Assembly (NCBI RefSeq): GCF_036588685.1
Contig: NC_086382.1
Span: forward strand, 44,601,552-44,665,551
Reading direction: 5' to 3'
Length of the DNA: 64,000 bases
DNA from: Mytilus trossulus
Lineage: Eukaryota
Shown here: one piece after another, positions 1 to 28,137 of the stretch
Numbering within the stretch: position 1 is the stretch's first letter
How the letters are laid out: each line of letters opens with the position of its first letter
Position numbers and translations under genes: made by a program
Notes under the pieces: generated by a model
What the model saw: the letters and a program-made list of their open reading frames with translations, nothing else
What the model was told of the DNA's origin: nothing
Database searches by the model: none

Positions 1-385
1 ACAATCAGTTTTTTTTTTTTTTAGAAAATTTGAAGAATAATATTATTAAACGTACACGTTTTATTTATAACACATACAACTTTATAGCGATCTCGAATAC
101 GTCAGTGATTCCATGTTTACTTAAGAATGTGTTAGCAATTCCTTTCAGTTTTATATATCATATTTTCATTTTTTAAATAACTTTTTGTTCGGTTTCCCTT
201 TTTAAAGGTAAATATAATAAAAATAAAGTTTATCAAATACGTGTTGCTGGTATGAGGAGAAATGCAAACTCCGTCAATTATAATTGTTTTTACAGCTACA
301 TCTACATTGTGCCTTTTGTCTGAACAGCATTACTGGAAACTGCTGGGAACTGGCAAATACAGTTGTTCAATCTGTGCATATTTTG

Positions 386-575
386 TAATTCCAGGCATTG
401 ATTACCTTAGCCGTATTTGGCACAATTTTTTGGATCCTCAATGCTCTTCAACTTTGTACTTGTTTGGCTTTATAAATATTTTGATATGAGCGTCACTGAT
501 GAGACTTCTGTAGACGAAACGCGCGTCTGGCGTACTAAATTATAATCCTGGTACCTTTGCAAACTATTGTAACTT
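386..575 (+). mobile_element. SINE family 2 copy (..ccttagccgtatttggcacaa..aatgctcttcaactttgta..gagcgtcactgatgag..gacgaaacgcgcgtctggcgta..ataatcctggtac..), inserted in a copy A intron
   Basis: It is absent from the orthologous position in copy B (about 21845), where flanking homology resumes on both sides. Other copies are at 11636-11800 (minus), 47480-47655 (plus), diverged at 55040-55165 and 36490-36600, and fragments at 46320-46400 and 47190-47260. Confidence 0.6.
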
Positions 576-1103
576 TTTATAATAAGATAAAATGTGATAT
601 GATTGCCTATAACTAACCATCAATCGTTCAAATGCATTAAATAAAAGTATCATATATGATTAATATCATTATTGAGTTGAAATTGCTTTGCCTGGACACG
701 TCATAAAATGAATACATTTCTTGGCATAGTGGTAGAACGATTGCCTTCAGTGTGATATAGTGTGCTCGATTTCAGGTAGTTTCAAATGAAAGCCTTGACC
801 TTTTACCTCCCTGCCAAATATGCGTCCTCAATTAGAACAGACTGATCGATTTGAAGTCATAAGTGTGTGGGTATGATAACATGTCCATTTTCTAGCTTTT
901 AGCTTGTTAAATAGCACATTGAATATCCGGCTACGCGTGTCGGTCAAATATAAAACTGTCACCGGACGTTCAACAATAATTCAAACTTCCATGCTGTCAT
1001 AATATGGCATTGCTTTATAAAATACTCCAAAATATTGCTGCCAATAAATTGATGTACTAACTAATTTACAAACGTGTTTAGGTTATTGTTTCAAAATACT
1101 TAC

Positions 1104-1328
1104 CAATTAAACATAAAAATAGACAATCGAACAGTTAGAATTTTTGACTTGTAAAGCTCTCCGACGGCTGTACAAAATGCAACCTTTTCATGTTACTCAT
1201 CAACCTTAATTTTCTGAATGTCAATTTCGAAATTAGCATTATTTTCTTTTGCAATATCCTTTAGAATCATTTCAGATCTTGATGACTTCCCCTTCGCTAT
1301 CAACCATCGTGCCGACTCTTTCTGGAAT
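1104..1328 (-). pseudogene. copy A exon 6 with the in-frame TAA (..IQKIKVDE*HEKVAF..)
   Basis: It is homologous to B exon 6. The stop codon is at 1193-1195. The acceptor is atctaag|A and the donor is AATTG|gtaagt. Confidence 0.6.
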
Positions 1329-1905
1329 CTTAGATATATTATTGCTAACTATAATTATTTGCGTTCGAAATGAAAATTGTTTGAGGGGCTATCATTTTCG
1401 TACGCTGTTGATAATATTATGTAGACGTAATGCACTTTTGGCGTACCAAATTGTAAGCCTTGGATAATTGAATATTTTTTGTTAAAACTTTTTTACCAAT
1501 TCAGATAGATCTATATTGTAAAATCTGTGTTTATTCAGTCGCAATTAAAACACAAAAAAATGCTTTATCGAGTATATAAATTTTATGGAAACTTATTTAA
1601 CCAAAATGTCAAATGGAGAACAGCAATACCATTACTGTTCCTTTAATCTTTGTGTTTCCATGTACGCGTAGTGATTTTGTGTCTGGAATTGTTTTGCCAT
1701 ATCCTGTCGTTTCCTTAAATTAAATTTATTCTTATAGTTTTGCTGCATTTAAAATAAAGCTATGTATTTGCTATGATAATACTTGATATATATATATCTT
1801 TCTTTCTACTTTCGAAAATATGGTTTAACATGTGGCTATCTATGAACGAATAAACTCAGTTAAAATATACGGCTTCATTATATTACTTGATATATATCTA
1901 CATAC

Positions 1906-2074
1906 AGTAATGAGGTGAGAAATATACCAACAACTATTGATGTTGACCAGCCCAGAATACGCCAATCCCTGATAAAGTAGGCAAAAATAACAAGCACGTA
2001 TTCTCCAATGCAGAAGGAGAAATAATAGGCAAAGTTTGCGAAAACTCTTTTAGAGGGATCCACCAATTTGGTAG
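1906..2074 (-). pseudogene. copy A exon 5 (TKLVDPSKRVFANFAYYFSFCIGEYVLVIFAYFIRDWRILGWSTSIVVGIFLTSL)
   Basis: The ORF-track ORF 1878..2213 covers it. The acceptor is ttcgttctag and the donor is gtatgt. Confidence 0.6.
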
Positions 2075-3815
2075 CTAGAACGAAAACATCTAAACTGATG
2101 AACATCATTAATATGCACAAAACATATTTATATCCTACAGATTTTGAACTGTTACAGTGAGGTTTTTGATACAAATCAGAATTAAGAAACTGAATTGGTC
2201 TATCAATGCCCATGCTACGTCAATCTTTAAAGACCATCAATGTTGTAAACACGTATCCTACCTCCATGACAAATTTGTTGTTGTCCCCGCAGAGAATCCC
2301 GAAACAACATCTAACCAAAGAAAATATCCTGGATAATCATAGGTCTTTACTAACTTCCTTTGGAATTTCAACCAAAGATGAAGAACTGGGTCTTCAATCA
2401 CTGTATTGCATACCTAAACTACTTAAGTGTCCTTACAAACCATGGTATATTGCTGGGTCTTCCAAGTGCTCCACGAAACCTCTTCCTAAATTATTTACAT
2501 CCATTTTGACAGCAATATTAGGCGGACTTTGAAGTTATTGTGAAGCTGCCTATTCTAGAGGTGGTATGAATCAGATGTGGCTACTAAAAAAATCCAAAGA
2601 TCTTTTAGAGTACATACAATCTAACTCTCTTTCATCTGTAATATTATTAAAACATTTTACTTTTCTCCACTTTACAAAAGTATTCCACATTTCAAACTTT
2701 AAGACAAATTGAAAGAGTTGGTATTGGTTTATTTCATAAAAAAGAATGACCAACGTAGATACAAGTATATTGTCTTAGGGAGGGATAAATCCTACTTTGT
2801 AAAGAATCAATCTGATTAAAACAAAAAATTCTTTGAAACTGACATTATCAAGATCTTGATTTCTTGATTGACAACATATTTGTATCGTTCGTAGGACGTG
2901 TTTTTCAACAGACTGTCAGAATTCCAATGAGAAGCAATTGAGCCCCTCTTCTTGTCGACTTATTTCTTTATTATTATGAGGCTGTCTTCATACATGAACT
3001 TCTTAGGAAGAAAGTTAAGAAGTTAGCAATATCCTTTAATTTAACGTTCCGCTATATAGATGAATTTCTCTCACTACATAATTTGAAAATTGGTGACTAT
3101 GTTGAACGCATGTATCCCATCGAATTAGAGCTAAAGGATACAACAGATACAGCTAAGTCGACCTCATATCTTGACATACATCTAGAAATTGACAGTGAGG
3201 GTCGTCTGAAAAAAAAACTTTACGAGATGATTTCAGCTTTCCAATTGTGAACTTTTTATTTCTAAGTAGCAACATTCCAGCAGCACTTACATACGGGGTA
3301 TATATCTCCCAATTGATACGATATTCCCATGCTTATATTTCCTATCATGATTTTATGATAGAGTGTTTCTATTTACAAGGAAACCATTAAACCAAGAGTT
3401 CCAAACCATCTGATTAAGACTATTTACCGGATTTGTTTACCGGATTTGTTATAGCATGAGCAACACAACGGGTGCACATGTGGAGCAGGATCTGCTTACC
3501 CTTACGGCATGTGTACTATTGCTTGTCTTTTCCATTTTTAGCCATCGCGTTGTCAGTTTAATTTCGATTTTTAAATTTGACTGTTCCTCTTGTATCTTTT
3601 TCTCTCTTTTTTAATAATTGACGTAAAGTTGAATTATTCCAAATGAGAATAGCAAATTTATTATTTTCGCTAACTGTAATTGCAATGCATCATCTAAAAT
3701 AGAATAAATTTTGAATGCCAATTTTATGAGTCTTCAAATTCGCTGTCATGTTTCCGTTTAGTGAACGTTAAAACATATCCCTACTAATCACATACTTTTA
3801 TGGGACACAGCATAC

Positions 3816-3970
3816 CTAGAATATAACCTGGATCATACACAAGCATGCTGAAATAACCGTTCGCAAAAATCAGGAAACCAACAAGTGGAAGAGACGAAAC
3901 GAAAGATCTTATCAAATTTGGTAACATCATTCCTATAAGCGCTGTTGTCAAAACAGGTCGTCTACCTAAT
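3816..3970 (-). pseudogene. copy A exon 4 (LGRRPVLTTALIGMMLPNLIRSFVSSLPLVGFLIFANGYFSMLVYDPGYIL)
   Basis: The ORF-track ORF 3784..4020 covers it. Splice sites are conserved with B. Confidence 0.6.
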
Positions 3971-4679
3971 CTGAATTTGAAGAAATATATTGTGTATGAG
4001 TTGGTTACCAAATTAAACAAAACAGCTTGAACAGTATGTTCCTTCTGGTGGTTTTATTTAAGAAACTTATTAACTAAACAGAATCGCTTATTAAGTTGAT
4101 AGAGACGTGATATGATCTTGATGTAATCAGTCATAATTTTAAAAGTGTTAACACAGTGATTTGTTTCGCCTGAGTGTCATTTCGGCTACGTAATTCAAAA
4201 ATTAAAAAGCAAACACTGAAATCTGTTCACTATGCCAACGTTTCAAAGACAGTAGACTTTCGAGGAGACGGCGGCGCCAAGTGGTCTCCACGGAAATAAA
4301 TGTACCAATACCAATTGAACTTCCTACCAAATATTATTATGACGTATTTACACTTAATCCGTTGGATGTTGGATGCCTATTACATGATAACTTAGTCTTA
4401 GAAGCATGATTTTTTATTATTTGTTATTGGCTGTTTATTCAATTGGTTTAATACTTATAATGAATTGTAACATCATGGTCCTAGATTAGGGGAGGATTGG
4501 GATCCACCTAACATATTTACCATATTTACATTCTATATGTATGTTACTGACCCAAACCAAGAGCCTGTAATTCAGCAGTTGTCGATTTTTGCTATGTTAC
4601 ATACTTGTTTTTGTTCAGTTTTTTGGAACATTAATGAGGTCGCGAGTTTTGTATTGATTTGCAGTTTTCATGTTGGTGA

Positions 4680-4815
4680 CTTTCATAGCTGACTATACGG
4701 TATGGTCTTTGTTCATTGTTGAGGGCCGTATACTGACCCGTAGTTGTTAATTTTTGTGTCACTGTGGAGAGTTGTCTCATTGTAATCATACCACATCTTC
4801 TTTTTATATATACAG
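4680..4815 (-). mobile_element. SINE/MITE family 3 copy in an intron of copy A
   Basis: tttcatagctgactatacggtatgg..cattgttgagggccgtatactgaccc..gagagttgtctcattgtaatcataccacatcttc. Confidence 0.5.
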
Positions 4816-6153
4816 TAAGTTCAAACAGAATAGGACATACACTCTAACTATTACGGAAATGTTGTATACCTAGCCCGGAAATTGAAATATGATTCAAGTA
4901 AACGTACCGATCTTTTTCAATTAACTTATACTAAAATGTTACTAATTCAACAATGTTATTAGGTCTTTAAATGTTGTTTTTAAGTGTAAAAATATTGATT
5001 TTGCTATCAGGAAATCAAAACCAAATAAAAAAGTATAGTATATAAAAATGCATATGCACGGAATTACAATCTTTTAATACCTGTAATTAGGTATGGCACG
5101 TTTTTCTCGGACTGCTAAAGACGTCTTTGCACTTAATTCATTGGATTTTGGATGTGCACTGATTGATATTTAAGATACTAATTTTTCAGTCGGTGTTATT
5201 GACTTCAAATTCATTGTCAGTAACTCAGAGTATTCTCAGATTTGTAACCTGTAATTTTGTATTGTGGGATGTATAAAAACCTCCACTGTCCAAGGTTAAG
5301 GGAGAGTGTGGGGCCTCCAAACATGTTTAATCACGCTATATTCTGTATGTGTATGTACCAAGTCAAAACCTGTAATTCAGGGGTATTCGTTTGTTGCTGT
5401 AAATCATATTTTTGTTATGTTCATTGTTTTGAACATAAACCAGGCCGTTAGTTTTCTCGTATCAATTATTTACATTTATCATTTAGGGGCATTTTATAAA
5501 TACCTATGGAGTATGTATTTTGTTCATAGTTGAAGGACTAAGAATGACCTATGGTTGGAAATTTATATGTCGTTTAGTCTCTGGTGGATTGTTGTATCAT
5601 TGGCAATTATAAAACATTATATTATTCTTATAATATATGCGATAATTAGTTTGTCTCAGGTGAGATAATAAAATTAACGGTACCAATTTTCTTGCACCAG
5701 ATGCGCATTTCGACAATACATGTCTCTTCAGTGATGCTCGTGGCCAAAAGATAACACTCTAGAGAAAATACAGCAATGAGCATTTTGATTCTAAATCTTC
5801 AAATATAATAATGGCGTTAATTTCAAATTAGACAAAAAGAAATCATATTTCAGTACTATTATTTGACATCTAAAAAACAATCTTAAAAACATAATTATTA
5901 AAAAGTTTTTACTTTTTTCCCTTTGCTGTGCGTATCTGATGTAGAACAAAGGAGACTTGTCATCAGATAGCCGTACGACATATGTCACTATAGGTGCAAA
6001 CCTTTATAGAAGTTCGGAAGATTTATTTATTGCTTAAAGAACCTTTGTTTTGTTTACTTTTGTGTCTTTGTTTTTTTTTGTAGCCATACTGTCGGCTATT
6101 TTTCAATTTTGTGTACTCTTTACGAATGTCGAATGACGTGTATGCATACGTAC

Positions 6154-6274
6154 GTGTCCGAAAACATTCCATACGTCATAGCACAGCAAAAAAGTCCAAT
6201 ATAATAACAAAGCATCGTGTGACTTCTTACGAATTTGTTGTCGCATACCATATCCAACTGAAAAATGGTAACCC
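6154..6274 (-). pseudogene. copy A exon 3 homologue (ITIFQLDMVCDNKFVRSHTMLCYYIGLFCCAMTYGMFSD) with a mutated acceptor
   Basis: The reading frame is open, but the upstream AG has been replaced by AC. The nearby alternative AG would give the wrong frame. Confidence 0.5.
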
Positions 6275-7150
6275 GTGAATAATTTTCTTGCACAAACTGT
6301 AAACATCAATTTGAATGTGAAATACTAATGTACAAATAAGTTGTTTGTGTTGTGAGCATTTTACTTGGTTAACACGCTTTGTGTTATTGCTTTCATTGAC
6401 TTCATTTTTAACTTACATATTCGTTTGTTATTCAGCATTTAAACCCGTTGTATTTGTATGCAACCGTCGATATCCTGTTGTTCATTGGTTGTCGTTTGCT
6501 GGTGTGGATATATATATATAGTTGTTCATGTCTGTCGATTTTTTTATCGACAAGATAACTGTTTTGAATGACTTTGGACTAATCAATTTGGGGCTCTTTT
6601 GAGCTTAATGTTCGGTGTAAGCCAAGATTACTAGTTGAAGGCCATACTTTTATTTAATTTTTTTAATTTTTAAGGCAAATTAATCGGAAGAAGTTTCACC
6701 CCTTCTCCCACCCCCACTCACACACAAAAACACATACAAGATAAAAGAAAAAAGTTGAATTAGAATGACAGCAGCGGAAAAGAAGAAAATCTTAAGTGAT
6801 AAATATTACATCAGATGTTAATATATAAATAATTATTACTATGAGAAACCATCTACTTTTCACTAGTGCGACTGTTATCTGTAAGAAATGTCAAAAAGCT
6901 AAAAATCTAGGAAAATTTTTTATTTTCTGCAGAAAAAGCACGTTATGGTTAATTATTCAAATGTTCATTTTTAATTTAATATATCTATATGTCATACTCC
7001 GCTTAATTCTTTCATTGATTAGTATAATTTGTGTATAAATGTTATATTATGCAGTATATTATCTATTGGATATTTATGTTGTGTAAAACCAATAAGCTGC
7101 ATTTGCGCACGGAAATAAAGTTTTATTAAGTTAGTTGTACGCAATACTTA

Positions 7151-7307
7151 CTGTTGAAATAAGTGTAGATTTGTACTGACTTTGATCGTAGACCCACTCA
7201 TTACAGGCTGTTGTACTTCCATTTTGATATACAAAACATTCAGAAATGTTGCAGCCCTATTAAGAGTACTGTTAAATGGATCCACCATGGTTTTTGGCAT
7301 TTGGCAT
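7151..7307 (-). pseudogene. copy A exon 2, carrying the 1-bp deletion frameshift
   Basis: The ORF 7148..7333 translation is ..CRCQMPKTMVDPFNSTLNRAATFLNVLYIKMEVQQ.. It switches frame relative to B (..NSTLNMAANISECFVYQNGS..). The B frame re-emerges as NGSTTACNEWVYDQSQYKSTLIST in the +1 frame. Confidence 0.6.
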
Positions 7308-7779
7308 CTGCAATATATTGACAAATGAATCAATTTTTACAGGAAAGGTTTTCAAATTAATCCGTATGCAATTCGCATTTATCATATAAAATTAAATCTT
7401 CGTTTAGTCTGAGGTCACAGCAGACATATTTTTAGAATGCCAATATTTTCTCAAGATTGAGACAAAAAAAAAAACCATTTCAATGTTGTTGTCTGCTTGT
7501 TTTTTACTCTATTCGACATTTTACTTTTTGATTGTTCCTTGATATTTTCTCTCTCTTTTTTTTCTTCTTTAAAAGTCAGAAAAATAACAATTGAATCGTT
7601 TCTCAACGGCTCAACAAGATGTACATCTGTACAATTTTTCTATTTCTTTGGTGGCTTTGTACGTTTTTTCGTAACGTGTTATCGAACCGTTTTTTGGAAG
7701 GGAAGTGTCATGACCTCATATTCAGATGTTTACAATGAACGATCAATCAGCATTTTCTGTGTCAATGAATCAGCTGTTA

Positions 7780-7925
7780 AAAAGTAAAATCACAAAAATA
7801 CTGAACTTAGAGGAAAATCAATTCGGAAAGTCAATAATCACATGGCAAAATCAAATAACAAAACGCATCAAAAACGATTGGACAAGAACTGTCATATTCC
7901 TGACTTGGTACAGGCATTTTCAAAA
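7780..7925 (+). mobile_element. repeat family 4 copy (..aaaatcacaaaaatactgaact..ggaaaat..aaaggaaagt..ggcaaaatcaaa..atcaaa..gacaa.aactgtcatattcctgacttggtacaggcattt..)
   Basis: It recurs at 9095-9240 and continues as a longer element to about 9900. Other copies are at 8940-9095 (minus), 36610-36840, 37130-37300 and 53860-54700 (a long form sharing about 700 bp with 9095-9900). Minus-orientation copies are at 45900-46090, 48700-48840 and 43560-43640. The ORF-track ORFs 7726..7929 and 48631..48834 are translations of it (..KSKITKILN.EENQFGKSIITWQN..). Confidence 0.55.
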
Positions 7926-8230
7926 ATAGTCTTAAAATATAATATGTATTGTTTAACACATCTTCAATGTCGATTTATAAAGGAACAACATAATTGCGTA
8001 CTTATTAGAAACGTTTAAATGTACCAGGACTACTTACTTAAAAATATAACCTACACCGGATTCCCGGATATCACTACGGCATATACAATTATTGCGTTTT
8101 TAATTAATAACAAGTGTATCGCGTATTGTAATTATCAGTAAAAAAAATTTCTGTGTTTGAACAGCGGTATACTGTTGCCTATATTTATCGCGTATTGTTG
8201 TCTGGCATTCCGATTGAAAAAACTACTTAC

Positions 8231-8373
8231 CTGTGCTTATGATCGCCAAGTATAAATGTCAGCATGTATGAAGTCATGGGATCCAAAAACGGAGGAATCA
8301 ATAACAGAGCCAGCATGCGTTTCTGAAAACGACCAAACCCGCCAATCTCTATTAGAAGCTTGTCGTAATTCAT
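8231..8373 (-). pseudogene. copy A exon 1 (MNYDKLLIEIGGFGRFQKRMLALLLIPPFLDPMTSYMLTFILGDHKH), intact
   Basis: The ORF-track ORF 8227..8433 covers it. The donor is CAG|gtaagt. Confidence 0.65.
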
Positions 8374-8939
8374 GTTGGTCCTGACAAAAAAGTCAAATCG
8401 GCAAACTATTTTGTTTGGATAAAGTATTACCACAAGTAAAGAGATTACTTGTAAAAGAATTATTTTTTTGCGAAAAAATGTCCAACATTGTTTTTTTTAA
8501 ATCCGCCTCATTGGATCACTAGTGGATAGTAAACAATCGTACAGCAGATACTGTTTATGCTATAATAAATCTAAATCGGATGCATCTAAATAAATGAAGC
8601 ACTATGAATGAACGTACTATATTGGAATTATGCTTAGAATGCATTTTCCCCCGTTAATCTTCAACACATGCAAGAAAAAGGCCACCATTGCAGTTTACGT
8701 ACTTGGCTTTATTGAGTAATTATACAATATATACACAAAAGAAGATGTGGTATGACTGCCGATTAGACATCTCTCCACCAGAGACAAAACGACGTAGAGG
8801 AAGCAATTATTGACAACAACGAGCAAAACCAATACCGCATAACAAGCTTTTTTTTATATTTTAACATTGATTAGGATAGAAAAGGTTTCTTTTCTGAAAA
8901 TGATCGAGTTTCTTAAAGGGGATAAGCTGTCAAATACAT

Positions 8940-9900
8940 GTTCATTAATTCAACTCTGAATCTTAGTTATTATCCATTTGTTTTTTGGGTGTTTGGGCTT
9001 TTCTTTTTGCCATTTGAATATGGACTTTTCCTCGGAATTCTGTATTTGCGTTATTTTATTATTTGCTCGTACTTAATTACAAAAAAAATAATGAAAAGAA
9101 AATTCACAAAAATACTGAACTCCGCGGAAAATTCAAAAAGGAAAGTATCTAATGAAATGGCAAAATCAAAAGCTCAAAGACATCAAACGAATGGATAACA
9201 ACAGACTTGGTACAGGCATTTTCTTATGTAGAAAATGGTAGCTTAAACCTTGTTTTAAAGCTAGCTAAACCTCTCACTTGTATGACAGTCGCATAAAATT
9301 TTATTCTATTGACATTAATGCGTGAACAAAACAAACAGACATTATAGGTAAACATGTTGAAAAAAGGAGAACAGCAGTCAACGTGGTGTTATGATATTAA
9401 TCACTATAAAACAAACAAATATTTAACAAAATAGCACAAATGGCATACAGCCTAAGGTTTTTAGCAACAATTAAAGACAAGAATACACAAATTTATTTAG
9501 GTAAAATAACACAATGATGGGATGCATAAGTACAGAGCCACTTCATATGTATGAAAAGAAAACCAAAAGCCACATAGACAAAGCAAATTAGCAAAATTGA
9601 AAGACAAGAATATGGAAATTATCATAGAACATTAACAAAATGACGGTATGGACAAGTACCGAGCCACGTCAAATGGATATCAATAAAAAACAGACTAAAC
9701 TGTAAAATTCATATACATAAAGACAAATAAAAGAAAAGTATAACACGTCATTAAGATAACAAACAACGTCAGTACCCGGAATATATACTTCAAGACCATC
9801 GCGTATTATTTGTCATGTTGATACGGAATATTATACCTTCCGAAAACATCTATTAAATATACATAACGTCCTTAATAAAAAAAAAATAACAATGCATGGA
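8940..9900. mobile_element. composite of family 4: an inverted partial copy (8940-9095, minus) head-to-head with a long copy (9095 to about 9900, plus) containing internal about 120-bp tandem subrepeats
   Basis: Segments 9240-9900 and 54040-54700 align over about 650 bp. Internal duplicated blocks aaagacaagaata..(ca)caaa(t)tt occur at 9470-9540 and 9600-9660. Confidence 0.5.
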
Positions 9901-10479
9901 GTTGTTTCAATATATCATAACTTCGTGTGTATTTTTGAATATGAGTCATATAATTTCCATCGGGATCGTCTCTTAAGAAATTTGTAGGCCATAGACATTA
10001 ATAAACATGAAGCATGTGCAATCGTATAATGAGCAATTTTCCTGATTGTCATACACTAAAAATAGTATCTTATAGCAAAACATTATTCGCTTTGTACATG
10101 TTTGGAACATCATCAATATAGTATGATTTTTTTTGTCCACTTCGTAGCTCATTCCCTTTTACCCATCATCAAATAAAAGAGATTTTGAAGTATTTTGTAA
10201 CAACATATTCCACTTTTGTAAGAATTTTATATTTGCAAATTGGTAGAACTTAGTATAGCTCGCTAAATTCTTACTTTTCAAAACAAATAGGTTCATAAGA
10301 TCTGTTCAACAACACAAAGTTCTTACCTTTAAATCTACGTCATCAAATATTCTTTCAAAATGAATCGAATCGTTATTACAATTGCTATCTAGAGAGAAAT
10401 TTCTAATTCTATAACACTCACACAAATCAGTAACACTTACAACTGATAAGATGGCAATTTAACTGGTATGTTATTTATT

Positions 10480-11420: not shown

Positions 11421-11635
11421 TTTCTACCCGAACAACAAAAAACTAATCATGCAAACACATCTTGCTTTTAAGAAAGCTCAAACTTGTAATTTTCTTTATT
11501 TTCAAAGTGTATACTATTGTTGCGTTTCATTTAAGTCTGTGTCAACAAAGCGTTTACCAGAACGTAATAGGTGTTAGCACATAACGTACTATGTGTTTGT
11601 ACATAACTTAATTGGTGTTTGCACATAATAGATAT

Positions 11636-11800
11636 CAAAGGTACCAGGATTATAATTAGTACGACGGACGCGCGTTTCGTCTACATAAGACTCATCAGTG
11701 ACGCTCATTTCATAACCAAAAAGCCAAACGAGTACAAAGTTGAAGAGCATTGAGGATACCAAAAAGTTGTGCCAAATACGGCTAAGGTAATCTATGCCTG
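11636..11800 (-). mobile_element. SINE family 2 copy
   Basis: It is the reverse complement of the 386-575 element (ggtaccaggattataat..gacgcgcgtttcgtctac..ctcatcagtgacgctca..caaagttgaagagcattgagga..). Confidence 0.55.
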
Positions 11801-12488: not shown

Positions 12489-12523
<35 letters not shown>

Positions 12524-18100: not shown

Positions 18101-18439
18101 GGAACTAAAAAAGGTATATCGAACTCCGAGGTAAATAAAAAAAATAAAAAAATGTGCAGTCTTTAAAAACTGACAAAACTGTGAAGATTCTTTGCTATAG
18201 CATTATTTGATACTGTTTAACATTGATTTTACGTTTTTTTTTCTTTTTCTATACTACCAATAATATAAGGTTAAATGTTGAAAATACTTTTTAATTAAAA
18301 AACACTGTTGTTGCCACTGAAACCTATATTTTTTCTGTTTAAATAAGTCCAGCGTGTGTTTCGTATCTTAAGAACATTGAAAAATAATATGTCGATGAAT
18401 GACTTCAAGTCTCATAGTTTTCTCGTTTTAATTGTTTAT

Positions 18440-18605
18440 ATCAGTGATTTCGGGGTCTTTCATAGCTGACTATGTTGTATGGGCTTTGCTCATTGTTGAA
18501 GACCATAAGATGACTTATAATTTATAATTTCTGTGTCATTTTTGGTCTTTTGAAAGAGCTGTGATATTGGCAATCATACCACATCAACTTCTTTATATAT
18601 ATTTT
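18440..18605 (-). mobile_element. SINE/MITE family 3 copy
   Basis: The family motifs are present (ttcatagctgactatg..gctcattgttgaag..ggcaatcataccacatc). Confidence 0.5.
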
Positions 18606-19063
18606 TCCACCTGATATAATCAACTATTTATACTCGTACTCCGTTCTTTTACACATTTCCCCATTAATAAAACAAAGATTTCGGTGGTTATTATTACAAT
18701 TTTTTATGAATTTGATTTGATGTTAAGTGATTTTCTCAGCTCTTTACAATTATGATAATGACAAATAGAAATGTGTTTCTTTGACAGAATGATAAACTGT
18801 TAAAATAGAGCCGTCGCTTAGTCACCAATGTAAGTAGTGTAAAGTAAGAAAGAAAAAAGTAATTACAATACTCTGTATCATGTTTACATTTCTAGTGCTA
18901 CTTATAATTTTGTATGTGTTTACTGTTAAGTCCTTTTGATAGGTTGAAAACTAAGATAAAAAAGTATAATTTAATGAAATCCATTGAGAAATTGCCCATT
19001 TGTTACCTATGTTTTATCTGAAACAAAAAATTTCTTTTTTAAATGTATCTTATGAACGACATT

Positions 19064-19069
19064 TTTATT
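19064..19069 (-). promoter_or_regulatory. AATAAA polyadenylation signal about 11 nt downstream of the gene B stop codon
   Basis: The minus strand reads TAAaccatttgctAATAAAaatgtcg. The site is seen directly, but its use is an inference. Confidence 0.35.
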
Positions 19070-19079
19070 AGCAAATGGT

Positions 19080-19304
19080 TTAAGGTTTAAAATCATTTGA
19101 GAAATCCATTCCTTTAATTTTAGGTTTTTGTTGATTAGACATAAAAACAGACCTTGATATATTTTCAGCTTCTTGTACACTTTGAGGCAATGGCATATTT
19201 TTAGTTTCTGGAAGGGCAAATGATAGTAAACCAGCACAAATACCAAATGCACCAAATATTACCAGCGGTAAGGCAACACCAAACTTTGTATCAACCAATA
19301 CACC
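19080..19304 (-). CDS. gene B exon 9 (TM12 plus C-terminus, stop TAA): GVLVDTKFGVALPLVIFGAFGICAGLLSFALPETKNMPLPQSVQEAENISRSVFMSNQQKPKIKGMDFSNDFKP
   Basis: The acceptor is tttgtag|GGT. LPETK is the conserved SLC22 C-terminal motif. The stop codon is at 19080-19082. Confidence 0.75.
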   Translation of the reverse strand, partial: GVLVDTKFGVALPLVIFGAFGICAGLLSFALPETKNMPLPQSVQEAENISRSVFMSNQQKPKIKGMDFSNDFKP

Positions 19305-22300
19305 CTACAAATATATAAAATGAATTTACCGGAAATTAACTAATCATAATTGATAATTGAAGAACCTGGGAAATGTCACTTAAAAGTATCATTATTTTTT
19401 TTTATTTTAGGGTTATTCGTTTTCCTTTTATGCTTCTGACTGTTAAATCTTACTTTCATTAAAGCATGCTTCTCATGATTATTGATTTTTCATATTTCAT
19501 AAAAGCAAGAAATTAAATGATTTTTGAAATCCTAATTTGTTTTGATTTGGTAAAAGTAAAATATATATGTAAACATCTTGTCAAAATTTCTTTCCTCGTT
19601 TCGAAAAATGGTCACCATAAAAAAAATGAAATATTCAAAAACACATATTTACCAAATCACCAACATATGCAGACACCATTGATCCAGCATACCCAGATGA
19701 GCTGCAAATTCCAATCGCAAATGATCTGAGGTTAGTTGGGAAATTTTCCGCTACCATAAGATAAATATTAAAGTATGCCACCGTTATTGTGAGCTTTCCT
19801 ATCATAGCTAAGGTTATCGTCAACCAGTGAAGGGCTGTAGTAGACAAATGAAAATACTATAAAAAACATGTTATTATACTTGCATACAAAGTTTTTGTCC
19901 GACGTGGTTTAAATGCATTTAAATATAACATAGATGCAGAGAAAGAAGTCAATATAAGTGGGAAGGACTTTTAAGTGCATTTAGGTATTACTAGCTATGC
20001 TCATTTTAACTAAGAAATGTTGATTAAACAAACCTTGTCATTGTTATTCCTTCTACATGTCGTATCTACATGAAACTACATTACTATATGCTAATGCATT
20101 CGTGGATTAACATTTGAGTTCCATGATGAATGGATATAAGTCATATTTTACAAAGCCGAATTGTATAAATTGACTTTGTAAAATTCAGTTTAAAAATTAT
20201 CAGTCTGAATAGTTGTGTATTTTTCATAGTTTATGAAATTGATTTGGATCAATGCTAAACAAGGTATTAATTCCAATGGAACGATAGCAAAGAAATTGCA
20301 TATATATCTATGATCATATCACCTGATATCATTGATAACTAACAGAGAAATATATGATGCATTTCAAGAGCTAATGATGGGAATGGAAAACGACAAAAAA
20401 GTATGTTATCTTAGTGTAACAAGCAATTTCAAGTCTCTTACAATTGATGATATTAGTGCGACCCAACCTAAATTTTCTACATATTCATCTGCTATTGTTC
20501 AATCTATTTTAACTTTTTTTCAGTTCTATTGTTTTATTGAGTGAACACAATAGCTATTGTTCTGTGTGTAGTCTATTCACCGGTACCTTTAGATTTATTC
20601 GCAAATAAAAGTTTAAATAGATTGAAACTGTGTAAATGTTTCATTTGTTTCGCCATATTTTTTTCATGCAGTTTGTGCATTTTAAACCGTTCGCTAAAAT
20701 AAGATAGAAAGCAAATATGAAAAAAAGTCATTGACTCAAAAAAAAAAACCACCAACGAATTATGTTATGATACAGAGTCTGGAAGCAAGTATATGTTGGG
20801 TCGCTATGAACTGTACCTGATTATAGAAAAAATAATCGTTTGCGTATAGAAAGTTCCAAAAAGTTCCCCTCCAATTATTGACAGTGAAAACTATACTATT
20901 TGTTTCACATCTATTAGCAAATGGAAATGCGAGATGAATTGTACATAATATAATGCATTTGCAATCATCGATGGAAATGTTCACATTGGTTGAACTCCTT
21001 TACAAATACGTACGTTATTCGGCATGTTAAGAAAGCTCATATATACTAAAGTTATGTACTTAAGGGGCTTTTTCAAAAGTCTTTATTACACTTTGATTGT
21101 AACGAAAGCATTTAAAAGTGTTCATAATTCTACTTACATGGACCACCGTACAAAGATGAAAATATTGTACACAGACAACCGATGCCACAAATTAACATTG
21201 AAGAACTAAATATTTTTTTTCTTCCAAGTCTTTCCACCACATAAAGACATATGAATAAGGCAATTACTTCAGCTGACGTGGATATTAAATAATTCACATA
21301 GACATCTCCACCTAAGTTACCAACTTTCATTGTGATCCCAAAATAAGTCATACTTATCGAAAACCTGTAAAACATATTACAATATTATTTAATAGCTCTT
21401 TTTTTACCATTACACCATAAAGTGTAGAAATATCACGCAAACGTTTGATAAAAGTAAAAGAAAATAACAAAACGAAAAGTTTTAAAAACAAAACATGCAT
21501 TGTTAAATTCTATTGAATTGTCAGTTTTCAGTGTTGACTTGATAATGCATTGGCTATTCCTTAGATTTTCGTTTATTTCATAACTTATTGATGGTGATTT
21601 TTAAAGACCTTGACTTGCTTTACAGCCCTTGCACGGTCGGTTTAATGTTTTCGTGGTTAACAGTAAATATACATGTAATATAGTTATCCAATAAATGTAA
21701 TTGATGGGAAAAGAAATGCTTACTCCGTTAATTATAAAAGTGAAACTGCTGCGTCCACAATGTGCCTTCTGTCTAAACAGAAAACTAGAAACGGTTAGAA
21801 ATTGGTATGCAAATACCGTTGTTCAATCAGTCCATATTTTCTGGCTTTTTATACAAAAATAAGATATGGTATGATTGCAAATAACTATTCAACAATCGTA
21901 ATACTTTCAAATATGATTTATATCAATATTGAGAGAAATTGGTTTTTTTTTATTGCAATTCAATGGTAAATTGCTTTGCTTGGGCATGCTATGAAATGAA
22001 TATACCGATTAGTATCATGGTCTCATGATTGCCTAGAGTGCATGATATCGTGTGCTCGATTTCATGTTGTTTCAAATAATATCCTTGACCTTTTAGCTAC
22101 ATCTCCGCTAAATATGCGTCCTTAAGTAGTAAGAAGAGACTGATCAGTTCAAAGTCATAAGTAAGTGTCTGGGTATGGTAACATGTCCTGCTGCTATATT
22201 TTAGCTTGTGACGTTGCATATACGGCTTAGCATGTCGGTCAAATATAGAACTGCGTTCAAAGTCATATCACATTAAGACGCTCTTGTCCTTATATGCACA

Positions 22301-25300
22301 CACTATTTGTCATCGGACGTTACACAACAATTCTGTCTTCCATGCTGCTATATCATGACATTTAACAGCTAATACATTGATTGATGTACATGCTGATATG
22401 CAAACGTGTTTATGTTATTGTTTCAAAGTACTCACCAATTAAACATAAATATAGCCAATCGAATCGTTAGAACTTTTGACTTGAAAAGCTCTCTGACTGC
22501 TTTACAAAATGCAACCTTTTCATGTTTTTCATCAACCTTAATTTTCTGAATGTCAACGTCAAAACTAGCATTATTTTCTTTTGCTATATCCTTCAGAATC
22601 ATTTCAGCTCTCGATAATTTCCCCTTCGCTATCAGCCATCGTGCCGACTCTTTCTGGAATCTGAAATAAAGTATTTCTAAGTATAATGATTTGCATTTCT
22701 AAGAGAAAATAGTGTGAGGGTCTAAAAATAACGTGCGCTGTTCATTGGTATTTTGTCTGGTTTCTTTACGATATTGTTTGTTAAAACTTTTTCTCGAGTT
22801 AAGATAGATCTATATTGTGAATTCTACCTTCATTTAATCAAATTTAATTAAAACACAAATAAATGCTTTATTTAATTTGACAGAAAGAACAAACGAAAAA
22901 AAAATATAGTACTATTCCTTGAATCTTTGTGTTTCCATGGACGAGTAGTGATTTTGTTTCTTGAAATGTTTTGCCATATCCCTTCTTTTCCATAAACTGT
23001 CCAAAGTATTTTTTATTATTCTATTGGATTTAAAATAAACTATTTAGTTGCTATGATTATACTTGATATATATCTACATACAGTAATGAGGTGAGAAATA
23101 TCCCAACAACTATTGATGTTGACCAGCCCAGAATACGCCAATCCCTGATAAAGTAGGCAAAAATTACCAGCACGTATTCTCCAATGCAGAAGGAGAAATA
23201 ATAGGCAAAGTTTGCGAAAACTCTTTTAGAGGGATCCACCAATTCAGTAGCTAGAACGAAAAATATCTCAACATGTGTTTATATGCACACACCTAATTAT
23301 ATCTTAACTATTGTGAACTCATAAATCGTTCTTTTTAAAAAATGGATTAAATGGGAAAAACAAAAGCTCAAACACTTACATCCATCTATTATTAAAGCAT
23401 ATGAAATCTTACGCATAGAATAAGAATAAGATTATTCATTGAATCCAATTAAAGGGCATATACATCTATATACATACAAATAAGGTAAACAAATTACCAG
23501 CAGTACTTATGGTTACTATTATTTAATAATGAACGTTATGTTGAATTATTGTAAATGACAATCGCAAATTTTGATTTTTGCTAACTCTGACAGCAATGCG
23601 TTATAAAAAATAAAATTAGTGTTTTTTTGTTATTTGATTTCTTATTTTATTAGTCGTCAAATTTGTTGTCATGGTTTTGTTAGATTAACATTTAGACATA
23701 CCACCCCTCCCCCAATCACATATACAAACAGCGATATATAATGTCAGCATCATACCTAGAATATAACCTGACTGATACACGAGCATGCTGAAATAACCGT
23801 TCGCAAATATTAGGAAACTAACAAGTGGAAGAGACGAAACAAAAGACCGTATCAAATTTGGTAACATCATTCCTATAAGCGCAGTTGTCAATACGGGTCG
23901 TCTCCCTAATCTGAATTAGAAAAAAAATATGATTCTGTGTGAATTGGTTACCAAGTTGGTTCTTCTAGAAACATATTAACTATCACAATAAAAATCAACA
24001 ATGTAATTGTGTCTTTAAAAGTTGTTTTTATTGGTAAACATATTGATTTTGATATCAGTAAATTAAAACCAAATAAAAAAGTATGGTTGTTCGGTGTGAG
24101 CCAAGGCTCCGTGTTGAAGGCCGTACATTGACCTATAATGGTTTACTTTTTTAGATTGTTATTTGGATGGAGAGTTGTCTCATTGTCACTCACACCACAT
24201 CTTCTTATATCTATTATATACATATGAATATTCCCGATACCTGTAATTTGGCATTGTACAAGGTCATTTGTCTCGAACTGCTAATGACGTCTTTGCACTA
24301 AATTCGTTGGATGTTGGATGTGTACTGTTTGATGTTTTAGTCTTAGATACAAAATGTTTTATTATGTATTATATGCTTTCAGTGACTGAGAGTATTCTTG
24401 GTCTAGTAAGGGGGACTGTTGTATTGGAAATCAAACGGATTACATCTTCTCATTTATGATGAGTTTTAATTTCAAGGGCGCATCGACCTGTGACGTCAAG
24501 TCCCCAGATTTTCAACTAAATTTCACGATTTTGAATATGACACTCTTGTGATTACATCTACATTTTACAAGTCGAACTTTATAACTATATTCTCATGTGC
24601 GCGGCTGATGAAGAAAAATGAGGCTTGTCATCAGATAGCCCTACGACGCATGTAACTATAAGTGCTAACCTTCATAATATTTGCAGCGCTTAAGTTCAGA
24701 AGTTTTTATGTTGTTAATGATTTGATTATTGTTAAAAAGACCTTTGATTTCTTTTTGTCTGTGTTTTCTATTGTTGCCATGTATTTTGTTTTTCTTTACA
24801 ATTTTTGTGTACTCTATACGACTGCAGATCACGTTTGTGGATACGTACGTGTCAGAAACCATTCCATATGTGAAGGCACCACAAAATATTCCAATATAAT
24901 GACAAAGCATCGTGTGACTTCTTACAAATTTGTTGTCGCATACCATATCAAACTGAAAAATGGTAATGCCTGAATAATTTTTAATGCAAGGACTAACTGT
25001 AACTAACAATTTGAATGTAAAATACTAATGTACAAAAAATGTGTTTGTGTTGTGAACATACTGCTTGGTTTACAATCTTTAGGTTATTGTTTTCATTGAC
25101 TGTATTTTTAACGTATATATTTGTTTGCTATTCGGCATGTTACGTTTAAACCCACTTCTTTTTTGTGCACCAGTCCTAACTCAGGAGCATCTTTCACTGA
25201 TTGACGTTGGTGTGGTTAATATATAAGTGTTTTTGTTTCAAGTTTTTTTTATAAAGACCAGACAGTTGTTTTGAATTGCTTACCACCAGTCAGATTGGGG

Positions 25301-26793
25301 CCTTAATAGCTTGCTGCTGGATGTGAGTCAAAATTCAGATGTAAGCCAATATTCCTTGTTGAAGGCCATACTTTGACCTATGATTGTTTTAGTTTTATAC
25401 ATTGTGAACGGGATGAGGAGATGCCACATTGGCACTACTTACGTCACATCGTATTAATAATATAGTTTCTTAATTTAATTTTTTAAGTTTAGGGTGACGA
25501 TTTTATAGAGGATTAATGGGTTTTTTTCGTAACCCCAATTATTGCATTACTTGTATATTTCATATTTATGTCTTTACTCTTGTAGTTAAACATTAAGATT
25601 GTCTTTAATAAAATATGTTTACATCAACAATCAGCACGTTCGAATGCTTGATTTTAGAAAAAAAACAAAATTGAGAAAAATTACATTTAAGAAATATTTT
25701 CTAGAAGTAGTTCCATGGATTTCATCAGTATAATCGTCGTTGTTTGGGAAGTGAGGCTCATAAATTCGAAAATACTTTATATGTGTACATTAAGGATCAT
25801 TAAGATTGCAGTTTGCTTTTTAACATCCTAAAATCGTAATTGAACGCAATACTTACTGTTGAAATAAGTGTAGATGTGTACTGACTTTGATCGTATACCC
25901 ACTCTTTACAGGCTGTTGTACTACCATTTTGATATACAAAACATTCAGAAATGTTTGCAGCCATATTTAGAGTACTGTTAAATTGATCCCCCATGGTGTT
26001 TGGCATTTGGCATCTGCAATATATAGTGAAAATGCATAAACTTTAACAAGAAAGATTTTTTCAAATTATCAATATTCAATTCATATTCATCATATAAAAT
26101 TAAATTCTTCGTTTAGCTTTAAGTCACAGCAGACATATTTCTAAAATGCTATCCTTTTACATATTAACTCAATATAGAGATAATTAAACAAATATTTCAA
26201 TTGTATTGACTTAATTTCTGGGTTTTGGGTTTTTTTTCTTTAAAAAATCTGAAAAATAACGATTGCAGCTTTTATCGACCGCTAAACAAAAAATATTTTT
26301 TGTGGCTTTGTACGTTTTTTCGTAACGTGAGATATCGTTTTTTTGGAAGGGAAGTGTCATGTCTTGAAATGTAATAACTTGTAGATCAGATCGTCAATGT
26401 CGATTTATAAAGGAACAAAAAAGAAGCTTATTAATTAAAAACGTTTACATGTAACACGACTACCTATTTTTAAAACAAGCATTACATACACCGGACTACC
26501 GGCTGTCACTATCATTATTACGTTTGAAATTAATAGCAATCCTTTTTTTCTGTAGTGTATCTTGTATTGTTATTATCAGAAATTAGTTTTTCTGTGTTTT
26601 ATCGCGTATTGTTGTCTGTCACTCAGATTGCAATTTGAAAAAAAACTAACCTGTGCTTATGATCTCCGAGTATAAATGTCAGCATGTATGACGTCATGGG
26701 ATCCAAAAATGGAGGAATTATTAACAGAGCCAGCATACGTTTTTGAAAACGGCCAAACCCTCCGATTTTCATTAGTAGTTTGTCGTAATTCAT
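19080..26793 (-). CDS. SLC22-family (organic cation/anion transporter-like, MFS) gene, copy B; 9 coding exons, about 534 aa, apparently intact
   Basis: Exon translations match the SLC22/OCT architecture from established knowledge. The N-terminus is MNYDKLLMKIGGFGRFQ, matching the OCT MxFDxLLxxVGxFGxFQ motif. The large extracellular loop carries N-x-S/T sites and ends in ITIFQFDMVCDNKF (OCT: STIVTEWDLVCD). The MFS signature RLGRRP follows TM2, PESxRWL (here KESARWL) follows TM6, and the second MFS signature VERLGRKK lies between TM8 and TM9. The C-terminal LPETKNMPLPQSVQEAE matches OCT LPETKGxALPETIEEAE. All nine exon junctions have GT..AG and mutually consistent phases. Confidence 0.8.
19653..19834 (-). 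CDS. gene B exon 8 (TM10-TM11): LHWLTITLAMIGKLTITVAYFNIYLMVAENFPTNLRSFAIGICSSSGYAGSMVSAYVGDL
   Basis: The acceptor is ctactacag|CC and the donor is TTG|gtaaat. ELYPTxxRN in OCT corresponds to ENFPTNLRS here. Confidence 0.75.
21138..21364 (-). CDS. gene B exon 7 (TM7-TM9, second MFS motif ERLGRKK): FSISMTYFGITMKVGNLGGDVYVNYLISTSAEVIALFICLYVVERLGRKKIFSSSMLICGIGCLCTIFSSLYGGP
   Basis: The acceptor is ttttacag|G and the donor is CCAT|gtaagt. The ORF-track ORF 21130..21375 covers it. Confidence 0.75.
22436..22660 (-). CDS. gene B exon 6 (TM6-TM7 cytoplasmic loop): FQKESARWLIAKGKLSRAEMILKDIAKENNASFDVDIQKIKVDEKHEKVAFCKAVRELFKSKVLTIRLAIFMFN
   Basis: The acceptor is tttatttcag|A and the donor is AATTG|gtgagt. 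The ESxRWL motif is typical of SLC22. No ORF-track entry covers it because it is split-phase and under 60 aa in that frame. Confidence 0.75.
23082..23250 (-). CDS. gene B exon 5 (TM4-TM5): TELVDPSKRVFANFAYYFSFCIGEYVLVIFAYFIRDWRILGWSTSIVVGIFLTSL
   Basis: The acceptor is ttcgttctag|CT and the donor is CT|gtatgt. It aligns to OCT ..RRYRRTVGIFYQ..LAYxIRDWRWLQ.. Confidence 0.75.
23756..23910 (-). CDS. gene B exon 4 (MFS motif RLGRRP, TM2-TM3): LGRRPVLTTALIGMMLPNLIRSFVSSLPLVSFLIFANGYFSMLVYQSGYIL
   Basis: The acceptor is ctaattcag|A and the donor is CTAG|gtatga. The phase fits exons 3 and 5. Confidence 0.75.
24095..24215 (-). mobile_element. SINE/MITE family 3 copy (5'-truncated) in an intron of gene B
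   Basis: gttgaaggccgtacattgacctat..ggagagttgtctcattgtcactcacaccacatcttc. Confidence 0.5.
24849..24969 (-). CDS. gene B exon 3 (end of extracellular loop plus start of TM2 region): ITIFQFDMVCDNKFVRSHTMLCHYIGIFCGAFTYGMVSD
   Basis: The acceptor is attattcag|GC and the donor is GACAC|gtacgt. The DxVC motif is conserved in SLC22 (..WDLVCD..). Confidence 0.7.
25856..26013 (-). CDS. gene B exon 2 (extracellular loop, N-glycosylation sites NST, NIS, NGS): CQMPNTMGDQFNSTLNMAANISECFVYQNGSTTACKEWVYDQSQYTSTLIST
   Basis: The acceptor is ttgcag|A and the donor is CAG|gtaagt. It joins exon 1 to give ..DHKHRCQ.., compare OCT PxHRCxxP. Confidence 0.7.
26651..26793 (-). CDS. gene B exon 1 (start codon, TM1): MNYDKLLMKIGGFGRFQKRMLALLIIPPFLDPMTSYMLTFILGDHKH
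   Basis: The ATG is at 26791-26793 (minus strand). The exon ends in a CACAG|GTTAGT donor and leaves 2 nt for the next exon. The ORF-track ORF 26623..26823 covers it. Confidence 0.75.
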
Positions 26794-28137
26794 CTTGGTC
26801 CTGACAAAAAAGTAATATTTCATTAAATGTACAAAAAATCGGTAAACTATTCAATTTGCAATAGTCGGCCTTGTTATATTACAATAATTTTAAATAAGAA
26901 GGCACCAGAGAAGAGTTTTGCAAATGGTCTTTGAGCTGTGAAAAGTTTCTTCCGATCTGAGAGTAAAGATTTGCAAGTTTTGCTTTAATATGGTAAATAA
27001 AATATGACTATCTGTCTAAGAACTCAATGTCCTGCCCCTTTGCAAGAGTAGAAAGTCATGGTTGGGACGTTTTTTATCCGTTGTTATACTTTCTACAGAT
27101 TTATTTGCAGTACTGATTTAAGCCTATTCTTTCAAATAAATCAAATGGGACATCTATCTGAACATACATTAAATCTGGACATCAACAGTTTATTATGTGT
27201 ACTGTTAAACTACGTATCGTAAATCATTAGTGTAGAACTGTCCACGGCAAAGAAAGAAAGTTGTCACACATTTTGTATAACTTTATGATTTTAAGATATT
27301 CATAGAATAGTTGTAAGATTGAATGGGTCATGTTTATAAAAAAATATTCTTGATATATCTGGTTAGCACAAAATGGCTGAATGATACTTTAAAACAGAAG
27401 TTATATAACCAAATGTCAACAAAACTGGCGTTCAGATATATGCAATTCGTCAAAAGGTTTACCATATAGATTATATAACGATAAGTTTGAATTCAAAAAC
27501 ATATTTAGATTTAGAACTGGTAATCAAAAAAAAAAAAAAAAAGATTACCAATTGAAACTTGAAAATGGATAGGTTTAGATAGAGAAAAGAATATATTGTA
27601 ATGTATGTCAATCTCAAGAAAAAGGTGATGAATTTCACTTTCTTTTGAATTGTAGATCCCTAGACGACTCAAAAAAAATGTTTTCGGATAATTATTATTG
27701 TAACAGAGAAAATATATATATTTTTAAATTATTACAAACAACACATAGGCATAAGTTAAAAATATATGCAAATTTATAAAGGTTACATATTCAGTAGCAG
27801 GTATTTCTGGTTAGCCTTTTCTATTTATTTTTTTTTCTGTTATAATAACTTCTTGCATAGATATATATTTATATGAAAAGTAATGGTAGCATTCCTATCT
27901 CATCATATCATGTGCACAATTATGGTTTAAAAGAATAAAATTGTCTTGTCTTGTCTTATTTTGATATTTCTTCGGAATTGTCGGAATACTAGATACAAAT
28001 CGTCTTTTATCAAATTAAAATCCTACTTATAACCAATTTTGTTTGAGAAATAATAAAGGGTTGTCACGTCTACATTGTGTTGGTAAATACGGCTCCTGTT
28101 GAAAATTTTAAAAAATCATACCTGCAAAAAAGGCTTA

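Follow-up and report, generated by a model that had tools for sequence, protein, structure and literature searches.

How old is a gene copy that looks freshly broken? The question is raised by a 64,000-nt stretch of Mytilus trossulus DNA (contig NC_086382.1, positions 44,601,552 to 44,665,551, from the assembly named PNRI_Mtr1.1.1.hap1, GCF_036588685.1 (PMC11304980); hereafter the window, with all coordinates counted from its first letter), in which two SLC22-type transporter genes, an upstream gene B and a damaged downstream copy A, lie in tandem on the minus strand. A preliminary description of the window had taken copy A for a recent, species-specific duplicate caught in the act of pseudogenisation by three independent lesions. 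The explanation that we consider very probable is a different one: the tandem duplication of this SLC22-family (organic ion transporter-like) gene would be old, with a functional upstream gene B, a downstream copy A that was long constrained and only recently inactivated, and partial gene conversion between the two.

The tandem pair and its age

In this AT-rich window (GC ~31%), open reading frame (ORF) fragments of the size of MFS-transporter exons occur twice, both times on the minus strand. A blastn comparison (query 1-12000, target 15000-30000) aligned copy A (202-8393) with gene B (21657-26813) in collinear blocks of 71-90% identity, the introns reaching 71-77% and the exon 5 region up to 90%. 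The exon peptides of B, searched against the window, mapped to copies A and B alone and in the same order in both, and a third copy was absent from 27-64 kb. As had first been described, the SLC22-like duplicates are real, stand in tandem on one strand and share exon-intron structure and intronic homology. Homology between the two gene bodies begins ~20-25 nt 5' of the ATG and ends near the internal donor of exon 9. In M. edulis, the ~9.5 kb past exon 9 of the corresponding downstream copy gave no second exon 10.

The window was compared with two M. edulis assemblies (GCA_905397895.1, here L001, and the chromosome record OY782965.1 of assembly GCA_963676685.2, here L002), an M. galloprovincialis locus (L003) and an M. 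coruscus locus (GCA_011752425.2 10001-64305, L004). In both M. edulis assemblies two copies follow each other on the same strand, one upstream and one downstream, and collinearity between the window and L002 extends over the 5' flank, the two copies and part of the spacer. Non-coding identity was 82-90% for orthologous sequence (window vs L002) as against 72-78% for paralogous introns. In a neighbour-joining tree (exons 1-6, 953 nt, Kimura two-parameter (K2P) distances, 500 bootstraps), copy A joined the M. edulis downstream copies (99.2%), while B fell with the upstream copies of M. edulis and the gene from M. galloprovincialis (99.8%), a grouping independent of rooting. Moreover, four-taxon site patterns around exons 1-4 supported orthology over within-species similarity by 58:0, 35:1, 28:3 and 31:1, and the synonymous divergence (dS) between A and B (0.265) exceeded that between orthologues (~0.175). 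Since the pair is present in M. edulis, and since the tree, the site patterns and dS point the same way, the duplication is, as judged from these sequence comparisons, older than the trossulus-edulis split.

Therefore a recent, species-specific duplicate decaying through three independent lesions is extremely improbable. It is true that A and B are adjacent, lie on the same strand and are similar through their introns, and that two of the lesions are real. But the same pair stands in both assemblies of M. edulis, the bootstrap support for placing A and B with their respective M. edulis counterparts is at least 99%, paralogous introns are less alike than orthologous ones, and the third lesion falls on a cryptic, unused site (see below). 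That reading could be rescued by introgressed M. trossulus DNA in M. edulis, but the window and L002 differ by 10-18% in non-coding sequence, which speaks against it.

On the older side, M. coruscus shows a single copy, the 10 kb downstream and the ~40 kb upstream that were examined being free of another, and its gene is slightly further from the A and B lineages than those are from each other; tentatively, this would be compatible with a duplication after the divergence of M. coruscus. An absence of copy A from M. galloprovincialis had also been considered and was withdrawn: the L003 locus ends before any A exon could appear, its spacer being collinear up to the copy A boundary and continuing there with a paralogue of the long 5' intron of B. 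No A-type protein of M. galloprovincialis is on record, and for Mytilus as a whole the records contain no A-type protein that is intact.

B and A are separated by 9.5 kb in M. trossulus vs 2.1 kb in M. edulis, and ~6.7 kb of the M. trossulus spacer (window ~11055-17811) is without counterpart in L002. Parts of this extra sequence also run collinear with L003 of M. galloprovincialis, so a partial deletion may have shortened the spacer in M. edulis.

Two sets of database models at the compared loci are composite. The L001 gene models fuse the tandem copies into chimeric proteins of 716 aa and 670 aa, which are annotation or assembly artefacts. In the M. coruscus model (1,553 aa, named SLC22A4_5) the SLC22 gene is joined to a Mutator-type transposase and an RNase_T/PML-like exonuclease element, and because of this fusion its 90% cluster also takes in unrelated 'PML-like' and exonuclease proteins; the transposase/exonuclease part has no counterpart in the window.

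Lesions, constraint and probable conversion in copy A

The exons of copy A that lie within the window are as follows.

8231-8373, minus strand: exon 1, intact, with the ATG at 8373 and the donor CAG/GTAAGT
7152-7307, minus strand: exon 2, 156 nt instead of 157, with a 1-bp deletion at ~7251-7249
6154-6257, minus strand: exon 3, with its acceptor AG at 6259-6258 intact, AC at 6276-6275 and a premature stop at 6229-6227
3816-3970, minus strand: exon 4, open and with canonical splice sites
1906-2074, minus strand: exon 5, 97% identical to exon 5 of B and inside a probable conversion tract
1104-1328, minus strand: exon 6, interrupted by an in-frame TAA (1195-1193); its acceptor is weakened, AAG standing in place of CAG

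The reading frame of copy A is broken twice, and copy A is disabled on this assembly: i) exon 2 has lost one base (GCTGC-AACATT in A vs GCTGCAAACATT, that is a run of AA vs AAA and no long homopolymer), a deletion that a six-way alignment placed in the window's copy A only; ii) exon 6 carries TAA where every other copy of that alignment reads AAA. Both lesions had been noticed in the preliminary description, and its limits of 8373 and 1104 for copy A, here the ATG and the end of exon 6, were recovered as well, as was the intact exon 1. Its third lesion, a change from AG to AC at the exon 3 acceptor, fell away, reducing the count from three to two: the site is cryptic and lies 17 nt upstream of the acceptor in use, CCATTTTTCAG, which is intact in A. 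The cryptic site reads AG in B (24971-24970), AC in A and in both M. edulis downstream copies, and AT in M. galloprovincialis and M. coruscus. Elsewhere in exons 1-6 of copy A the ATG, the reading frame and all donors and acceptors are canonical, the exon 6 acceptor alone being weakened.

With normal splicing, the frameshift would lead to a stop at codon 110 (6229-6227) and a product of 109 aa. The transcripts, if made, would be targets of nonsense-mediated decay, because this stop lies many exons upstream of the last junction. Copy A is an unprocessed paralogue of B, combining homology to the parent and retained homologous introns with the exon 2 frameshift and the exon 6 TAA of an unprocessed pseudogene. 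It also keeps, at 10110-10480 (minus strand), a paralogue of a 5' module that is found upstream of B at 35580-35930 and 44760-45060. The proposal that copy A lacked the parental promoter and 5' region was withdrawn when this module was found, and since the module is retained upstream of A, A was not obviously duplicated without a promoter.

The M. edulis pair (OY782965.1), which is already annotated, is organised alike: its upstream copy is intact and orthologous to B (XP_071133848-51, four accessions that RefSeq lists for this one protein), and its downstream copy, the orthologue of A, likewise encodes no intact transporter. The intron 1 donor of the downstream copy is changed from GT to AT in both M. 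edulis assemblies, and L002 has a 1-bp deletion in exon 3 that is absent in L001. The RefSeq product of this copy is a truncated protein of 224 aa with an out-of-frame start in exon 2 and exon 3 skipped, and the gene call there (L002 25149-31594) gives 240 aa. None of these lesions is common to the two species; the M. edulis orthologue of A would have been damaged independently, by mutations different from the exon 2 deletion and exon 6 TAA of M. trossulus. Indels seen in L001 only were treated as possible assembly errors, and lesions present in both M. edulis assemblies were relied on, because the indels of the L001 upstream copy (an insertion in exon 5 and another at the end of exon 6) are absent from the intact chromosome-level L002; the L001 downstream copy has indels in exon 9. 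The single-base indel sites of L001 are 14262-14267, ~15005-15010 and 31916-31966.

Apart from its lesions, copy A bears the mark of purifying selection. The ratio of nonsynonymous to synonymous divergence (dN/dS) was 0.17 for A and B, 0.195 for A and its M. edulis orthologue and 0.156 for B and its orthologue. For the A-lineage pair (A and the M. edulis downstream copy), 25 nonsynonymous vs 32 synonymous differences were counted, which rejects neutrality (binomial P=1.4e-8, 78% of sites being nonsynonymous in these tests). The changes private to A were 13 nonsynonymous (stop included) and 13 synonymous (omega ~0.27, P=0.0013), a ratio well short of the dN/dS near 1 that marks a pseudogene since its inactivation; the terminal branch of B had 8 nonsynonymous vs 9 synonymous changes (omega ~0.24). 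Three of the 12 private missense changes of A (G125C, E189K and A261S) fall in columns at least 90% conserved among 24 homologues, as against none of the eight of B, a weak sign of relaxed constraint on A.

The A lineage was thus constrained, and so presumably functional, for most of its history, and because of this strong purifying selection the inactivation appears young relative to the age of the copy. It may be very recent, or the lesions may represent a segregating null allele or be confined to some haplotypes. The phrase 'caught in the act of pseudogenisation' is therefore apt for the inactivating changes, which look young, and misleading for the duplicate itself, which is not young. We infer three things: the two lesions are genuine and no artefacts of assembly, they destroy the function of the copy, and its inactivation happened recently. 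In this account, copy A would have arisen before M. trossulus and M. edulis separated, would have worked for long and would then have been lost through the exon 2 frameshift and the exon 6 nonsense codon.

Several points weigh against this account: i) the window stops short of exons 7-10 of copy A; ii) the lesions are read from the assembled sequence, and A may or may not be transcribed; iii) that assembly is apparently single-haplotype (hap1), so an intact A allele may exist; iv) dN/dS was obtained by Nei-Gojobori counting and parsimony, not likelihood, and from small counts; v) the terminal omega of A (~0.27) is indistinguishable from that of B (~0.24), leaving almost no relaxed constraint beyond the two lesions.

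These points lend some weight to another reading, in which copy A works at the species level. Its lesions would then have arisen in assembly, or they would mark a null allele limited to this haplotype, and A would be a dispensable gene with a polymorphic pseudogene form. The constrained terminal branch, with its 13 synonymous vs 13 nonsynonymous changes, is what such a gene would leave, as are the intact ATG and splice sites of A within the window and the retained 5' module; the apparently single-haplotype assembly would allow for it, and the M. edulis exon 3 deletion is present in L002 and not in L001, so lesions may segregate. We nevertheless regard this reading as unlikely, if worth keeping in view. 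One haplotype carries two independent disabling changes, of which the deletion sits outside any long homopolymer (AA vs AAA) and the TAA is a substitution, improbable as an assembly error. Moreover, three missense changes affect near-invariant positions, no intact A-type Mytilus protein is on record, and the M. edulis orthologue is damaged in both assemblies.

The exons of A and B do not all tell the same history. Exon 5 is 97.0% identical between A and B, vs 92.9% and 95.3% in the orthologue pairs. A ~370-nt tract around it contains no A/B-diagnostic site that supports orthology and four sites of conversion type, and the block that includes it (A 1884-2150 vs B 23060-23319) has 89.9% identity. 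A short gene-conversion tract around exon 5 is probable; it would have partly homogenised A and B.

Repeated conversion from B could also, in principle, have lowered dN/dS artefactually in a copy that had been dead since soon after the duplication. Besides the conversion-like tract at exon 5, a weaker one at the start of exon 6 and the unusual similarity of exons 5 and 7 between the M. edulis paralogues fit such an early death. Outside exon 5, on the other hand, orthology prevails over conversion-type sites by the ratios given above (58:0, 35:1, 28:3, 31:1), the changes private to A, which conversion cannot create, still give omega ~0.27, and the lesions differ between the species, so that none is ancestral. 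An early death of copy A is accordingly very unlikely, and a long-constrained copy with a late inactivation remains the account that we prefer.

Structure and family of gene B

Gene B has 11 exons, a 5' untranslated region (5'UTR) exon and ten coding exons, over ~27 kb of the minus strand (window 44990 to ~17811), and its product has 529 aa.

44947-44990, minus strand: 5'UTR exon, non-coding, matched by nt 1-44 of a transcript contig at 95%, with the donor AAG/GTAAGG
26651-26793, minus strand: coding exon 1, with the ATG at 26793; the exon starts at ~26800, after the acceptor TTTTTTGTCAG
25857-26013, minus strand: coding exon 2, extracellular loop (splice-site ORF joining and transcript contig)
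24849-24952, minus strand: coding exon 3, with the true acceptor AG at 24954-24953; transcript nt 351 aligns to 24952
23756-23910, minus strand: coding exon 4 (splice-site ORF joining and transcript contig)
23082-23250, minus strand: coding exon 5 (same evidence as exon 4)
22436-22660, minus strand: coding exon 6 (same evidence as exon 4)
21138-21364, minus strand: coding exon 7 (same evidence as exon 4)
19653-19834, minus strand: coding exon 8, which holds Y442 (same evidence as exon 4)
19153-19304, minus strand: coding exon 9, ending at the donor AAG/GTCTGT
17836-17911, minus strand: coding exon 10, KQYKEGGSILYLKGAESSLIVTKD and the stop codon (transcript contig and RefSeq protein)

The transcript is the Logan contig L005 (public run SRR34257100), which is intronless, 1,685 nt long and encodes a 529-aa orthologue of B; its alignment to the window falls into 11 blocks, and these reproduce every exon boundary of the model. 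The 529-aa translation is identical over all residues to XP_063403792.1 (organic cation transporter protein-like, Mytilus trossulus). Gene B is thus an expressed SLC22-fold transporter gene, and it is already known, RefSeq holding exactly this structure. The phase of the exon 10 acceptor, TTTCATTACAG, fits the internal donor AAG/GTCTGT of exon 9 at 19153. A nine-exon model of 528 aa, obtained by GT-AG joining, was dropped when a 529-aa M. edulis RefSeq protein with another C-terminus pointed to exon 10.

The start of B had been described correctly, ORF joining confirming the ATG at 26793 and an open, GT-AG-consistent frame; its nine exons and 534 aa had not, as the identity with the RefSeq protein and the transcript contig make clear. 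When alternative GT and AG sites were enumerated with a read-through last exon, one way alone reached 534 aa: it takes the exon 2 donor 4 nt further on and the exon 3 acceptor 17 nt upstream (AG 24971-24970), shifts the exon 5/6 junction, and reads through exon 9 to a stop at 19080. This route departs from XP_063403792.1 at two junctions, exon 2/3 and exon 5/6, and again at the C-terminus. It puts VSITIFQ ahead of FDMVC, where the RefSeq models read LIST/FDMVC at the exon 2/3 junction, and the insertion is absent from every homologue, RefSeq model and transcript compared. The case is a caution that a cryptic acceptor and a read-through last exon can give a plausible ab initio model with a spurious lesion and the wrong length.

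The 5' module that includes the UTR exon (44760-45060, minus strand), ~18 kb upstream of the ATG, has a second copy, still upstream of B, at 35580-35930 (minus strand). This duplicated module could provide an alternative first exon or promoter.

The family of B, SLC22 (TC 2.A.1.19, transporters of organic cations, anions and zwitterions), also given correctly in the preliminary description, is agreed on by Pfam profiles, sequence matches in PDB and a fold search. The protein matched MFS_1 with 97.2 bits (cut-off 33.4, E=1.2e-27) and Sugar_tr with 82.8 bits (cut-off 22.3, E=3.1e-23). TIGR00898 (2A0119, cation transport protein) was by far its best NCBIfam match (E=7.7e-93, profile positions 96-505/506), with 312 bits, short of the 550.75 bits set as curated cut-off. 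In PDB, the 26 best-matching sequences were all SLC22 (OCT3 at 3.8e-64, OCT2, OCT1, OCTN2, URAT1, OAT1, OAT4 and SLC22A17), the next family, SV2B, following at 1e-6. Kyte-Doolittle counts of transmembrane (TM) helices were unreliable, and an AlphaFold2 model was used instead (predicted local distance difference test, pLDDT, 82.9; predicted TM-score, pTM, 0.83). It predicts a 12-helix MFS fold with a small beta-rich domain at residues 47-88, and Foldseek ranks 1-45 with this model were all SLC22 structures (template-modelling score, TM-score, up to 0.87). Gene B is, on these profile matches and this predicted fold, an SLC22-type MFS transporter.

SLC22 proteins carry signature motifs, namely ASF before TM2, G-x3-D-[RK]-x-G-R-[RK] between TM2 and TM3, ESPRWL after TM6, ELYPT-x2-R, and LPET after TM12. 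Gene B has STLISTFDMVC (95), GMVSDTLGRR (130), with Thr at the R/K position of the family motif, ESARWL (247), ENFPTNLR (423) and LPET (485). The vertebrate SLC22A proteins of solved structure (OCT1/2/3, OCTN2, OAT1, URAT1) share with B the MFS fold (TM-score 0.82-0.87 to the best matches) and the same set of motifs (the ASF-like STLISTFDMVC, G-x3-D-x2-GRR, ESARWL, E-x-FPT-x2-R and LPET), at a sequence identity of 23-29% over ~430 residues. By alignment, the extracellular loop between TM1 and TM2 is ~40 residues shorter in B than in OCT3. Gene B has four cysteines, and OCTs typically have six.

One position of TM11 bears on the substrate. Tyr442 of B, at the position for charge selectivity, aligns to an Asp in the OCT3 and OCT2 chains, the Asp that the solved OCT1-3 structures share (D475 of rat OCT1) and that binds cationic substrates. 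The Asp that characterises the OCT subclade (SLC22A1-3) is thus replaced in B. In the alignment of homologues the column is Arg in 19 of 24, including the nearest non-Mytilus relative and a Mytilus paralogue, and Tyr is limited to B itself and its orthologues from M. edulis and M. galloprovincialis; Tyr was also seen by eye in the orthologue from M. coruscus and in the downstream copy of M. edulis. Because this position is Tyr instead of Asp, B should not, despite its RefSeq name, be filed as an OCT1-3 orthologue. The residue may mark a shift in substrate class, and because it is neither Asp nor Arg, the substrate class of B is not readable from sequence. By analogy with its family, B would carry small organic ions by facilitated or exchange transport with alternating access.

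Wider bearing and other features of the locus

A broader proposal combines the two halves of the locus: copy A would be dispensable, with working alleles in populations and parallel, independent loss in the sister species, and, given the clade-specific change from Arg to Tyr in TM11, the pair would form an SLC22 subfamily peculiar to Mytilus, altered in substrate class and differing in dosage from one individual to another. If true, M. trossulus and M. edulis would each carry different loss-of-function alleles beside intact ones. As a whole we find this proposal doubtful. A long-constrained downstream copy with different disabling mutations in two species does fit mussels that tolerate the loss of dispensable duplicates. 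Gene presence/absence variation and dispensable genes in Mytilus are the topic of PMC10138031. Copy A resembles such cases as a lineage-restricted duplicate that apparently loses function independently in related species, possibly through segregating nulls; it differs in that it is physically present and disabled by point lesions.

A tandem duplicate with one disabled copy is routine in animal transporter families. The event is an ordinary one for a gene family, the locus is largely annotated, and its bearing hardly goes further than the quality of annotation. The duplicate, young at first sight, proved older than the species. A search of the literature on SLC22 in Mytilus yielded no study of gene B or its locus, and functional data on transport by B were not found.

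A tRNA scan of the window gave no hit. A dispersed repeat of ~180-330 bp, probably a MITE-like (miniature inverted-repeat transposable element) or SINE-like (short interspersed nuclear element) element, sits in introns of both copies and in the flanks, and it is also present at several sites of the M. edulis loci.

4488-4812: dispersed repeat
5283-5594: dispersed repeat
18415-18601: dispersed repeat
24112-24222: dispersed repeat
28134-28291: dispersed repeat
41797-41977: dispersed repeat
14786-15118: tandem array with a 22-bp period, ~9 copies
28894-29597: tandem array with a 22-bp period, ~31 copies
47584-47627, plus strand: match to Rfam Hammerhead_1 (RF00163, type I)

The first tandem array yields spurious long ORFs at 14663-15221, and the position of the second is conserved in M. 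edulis (L002 7613-8282). The Hammerhead_1 match scored 34.1 bits vs a gathering score of 34 (E=1e-4) and lies upstream of the first coding exon of gene B, inside or near the long 5' intron. Hammerhead motifs in bivalves are usually part of retrozyme or Penelope-like repeats.

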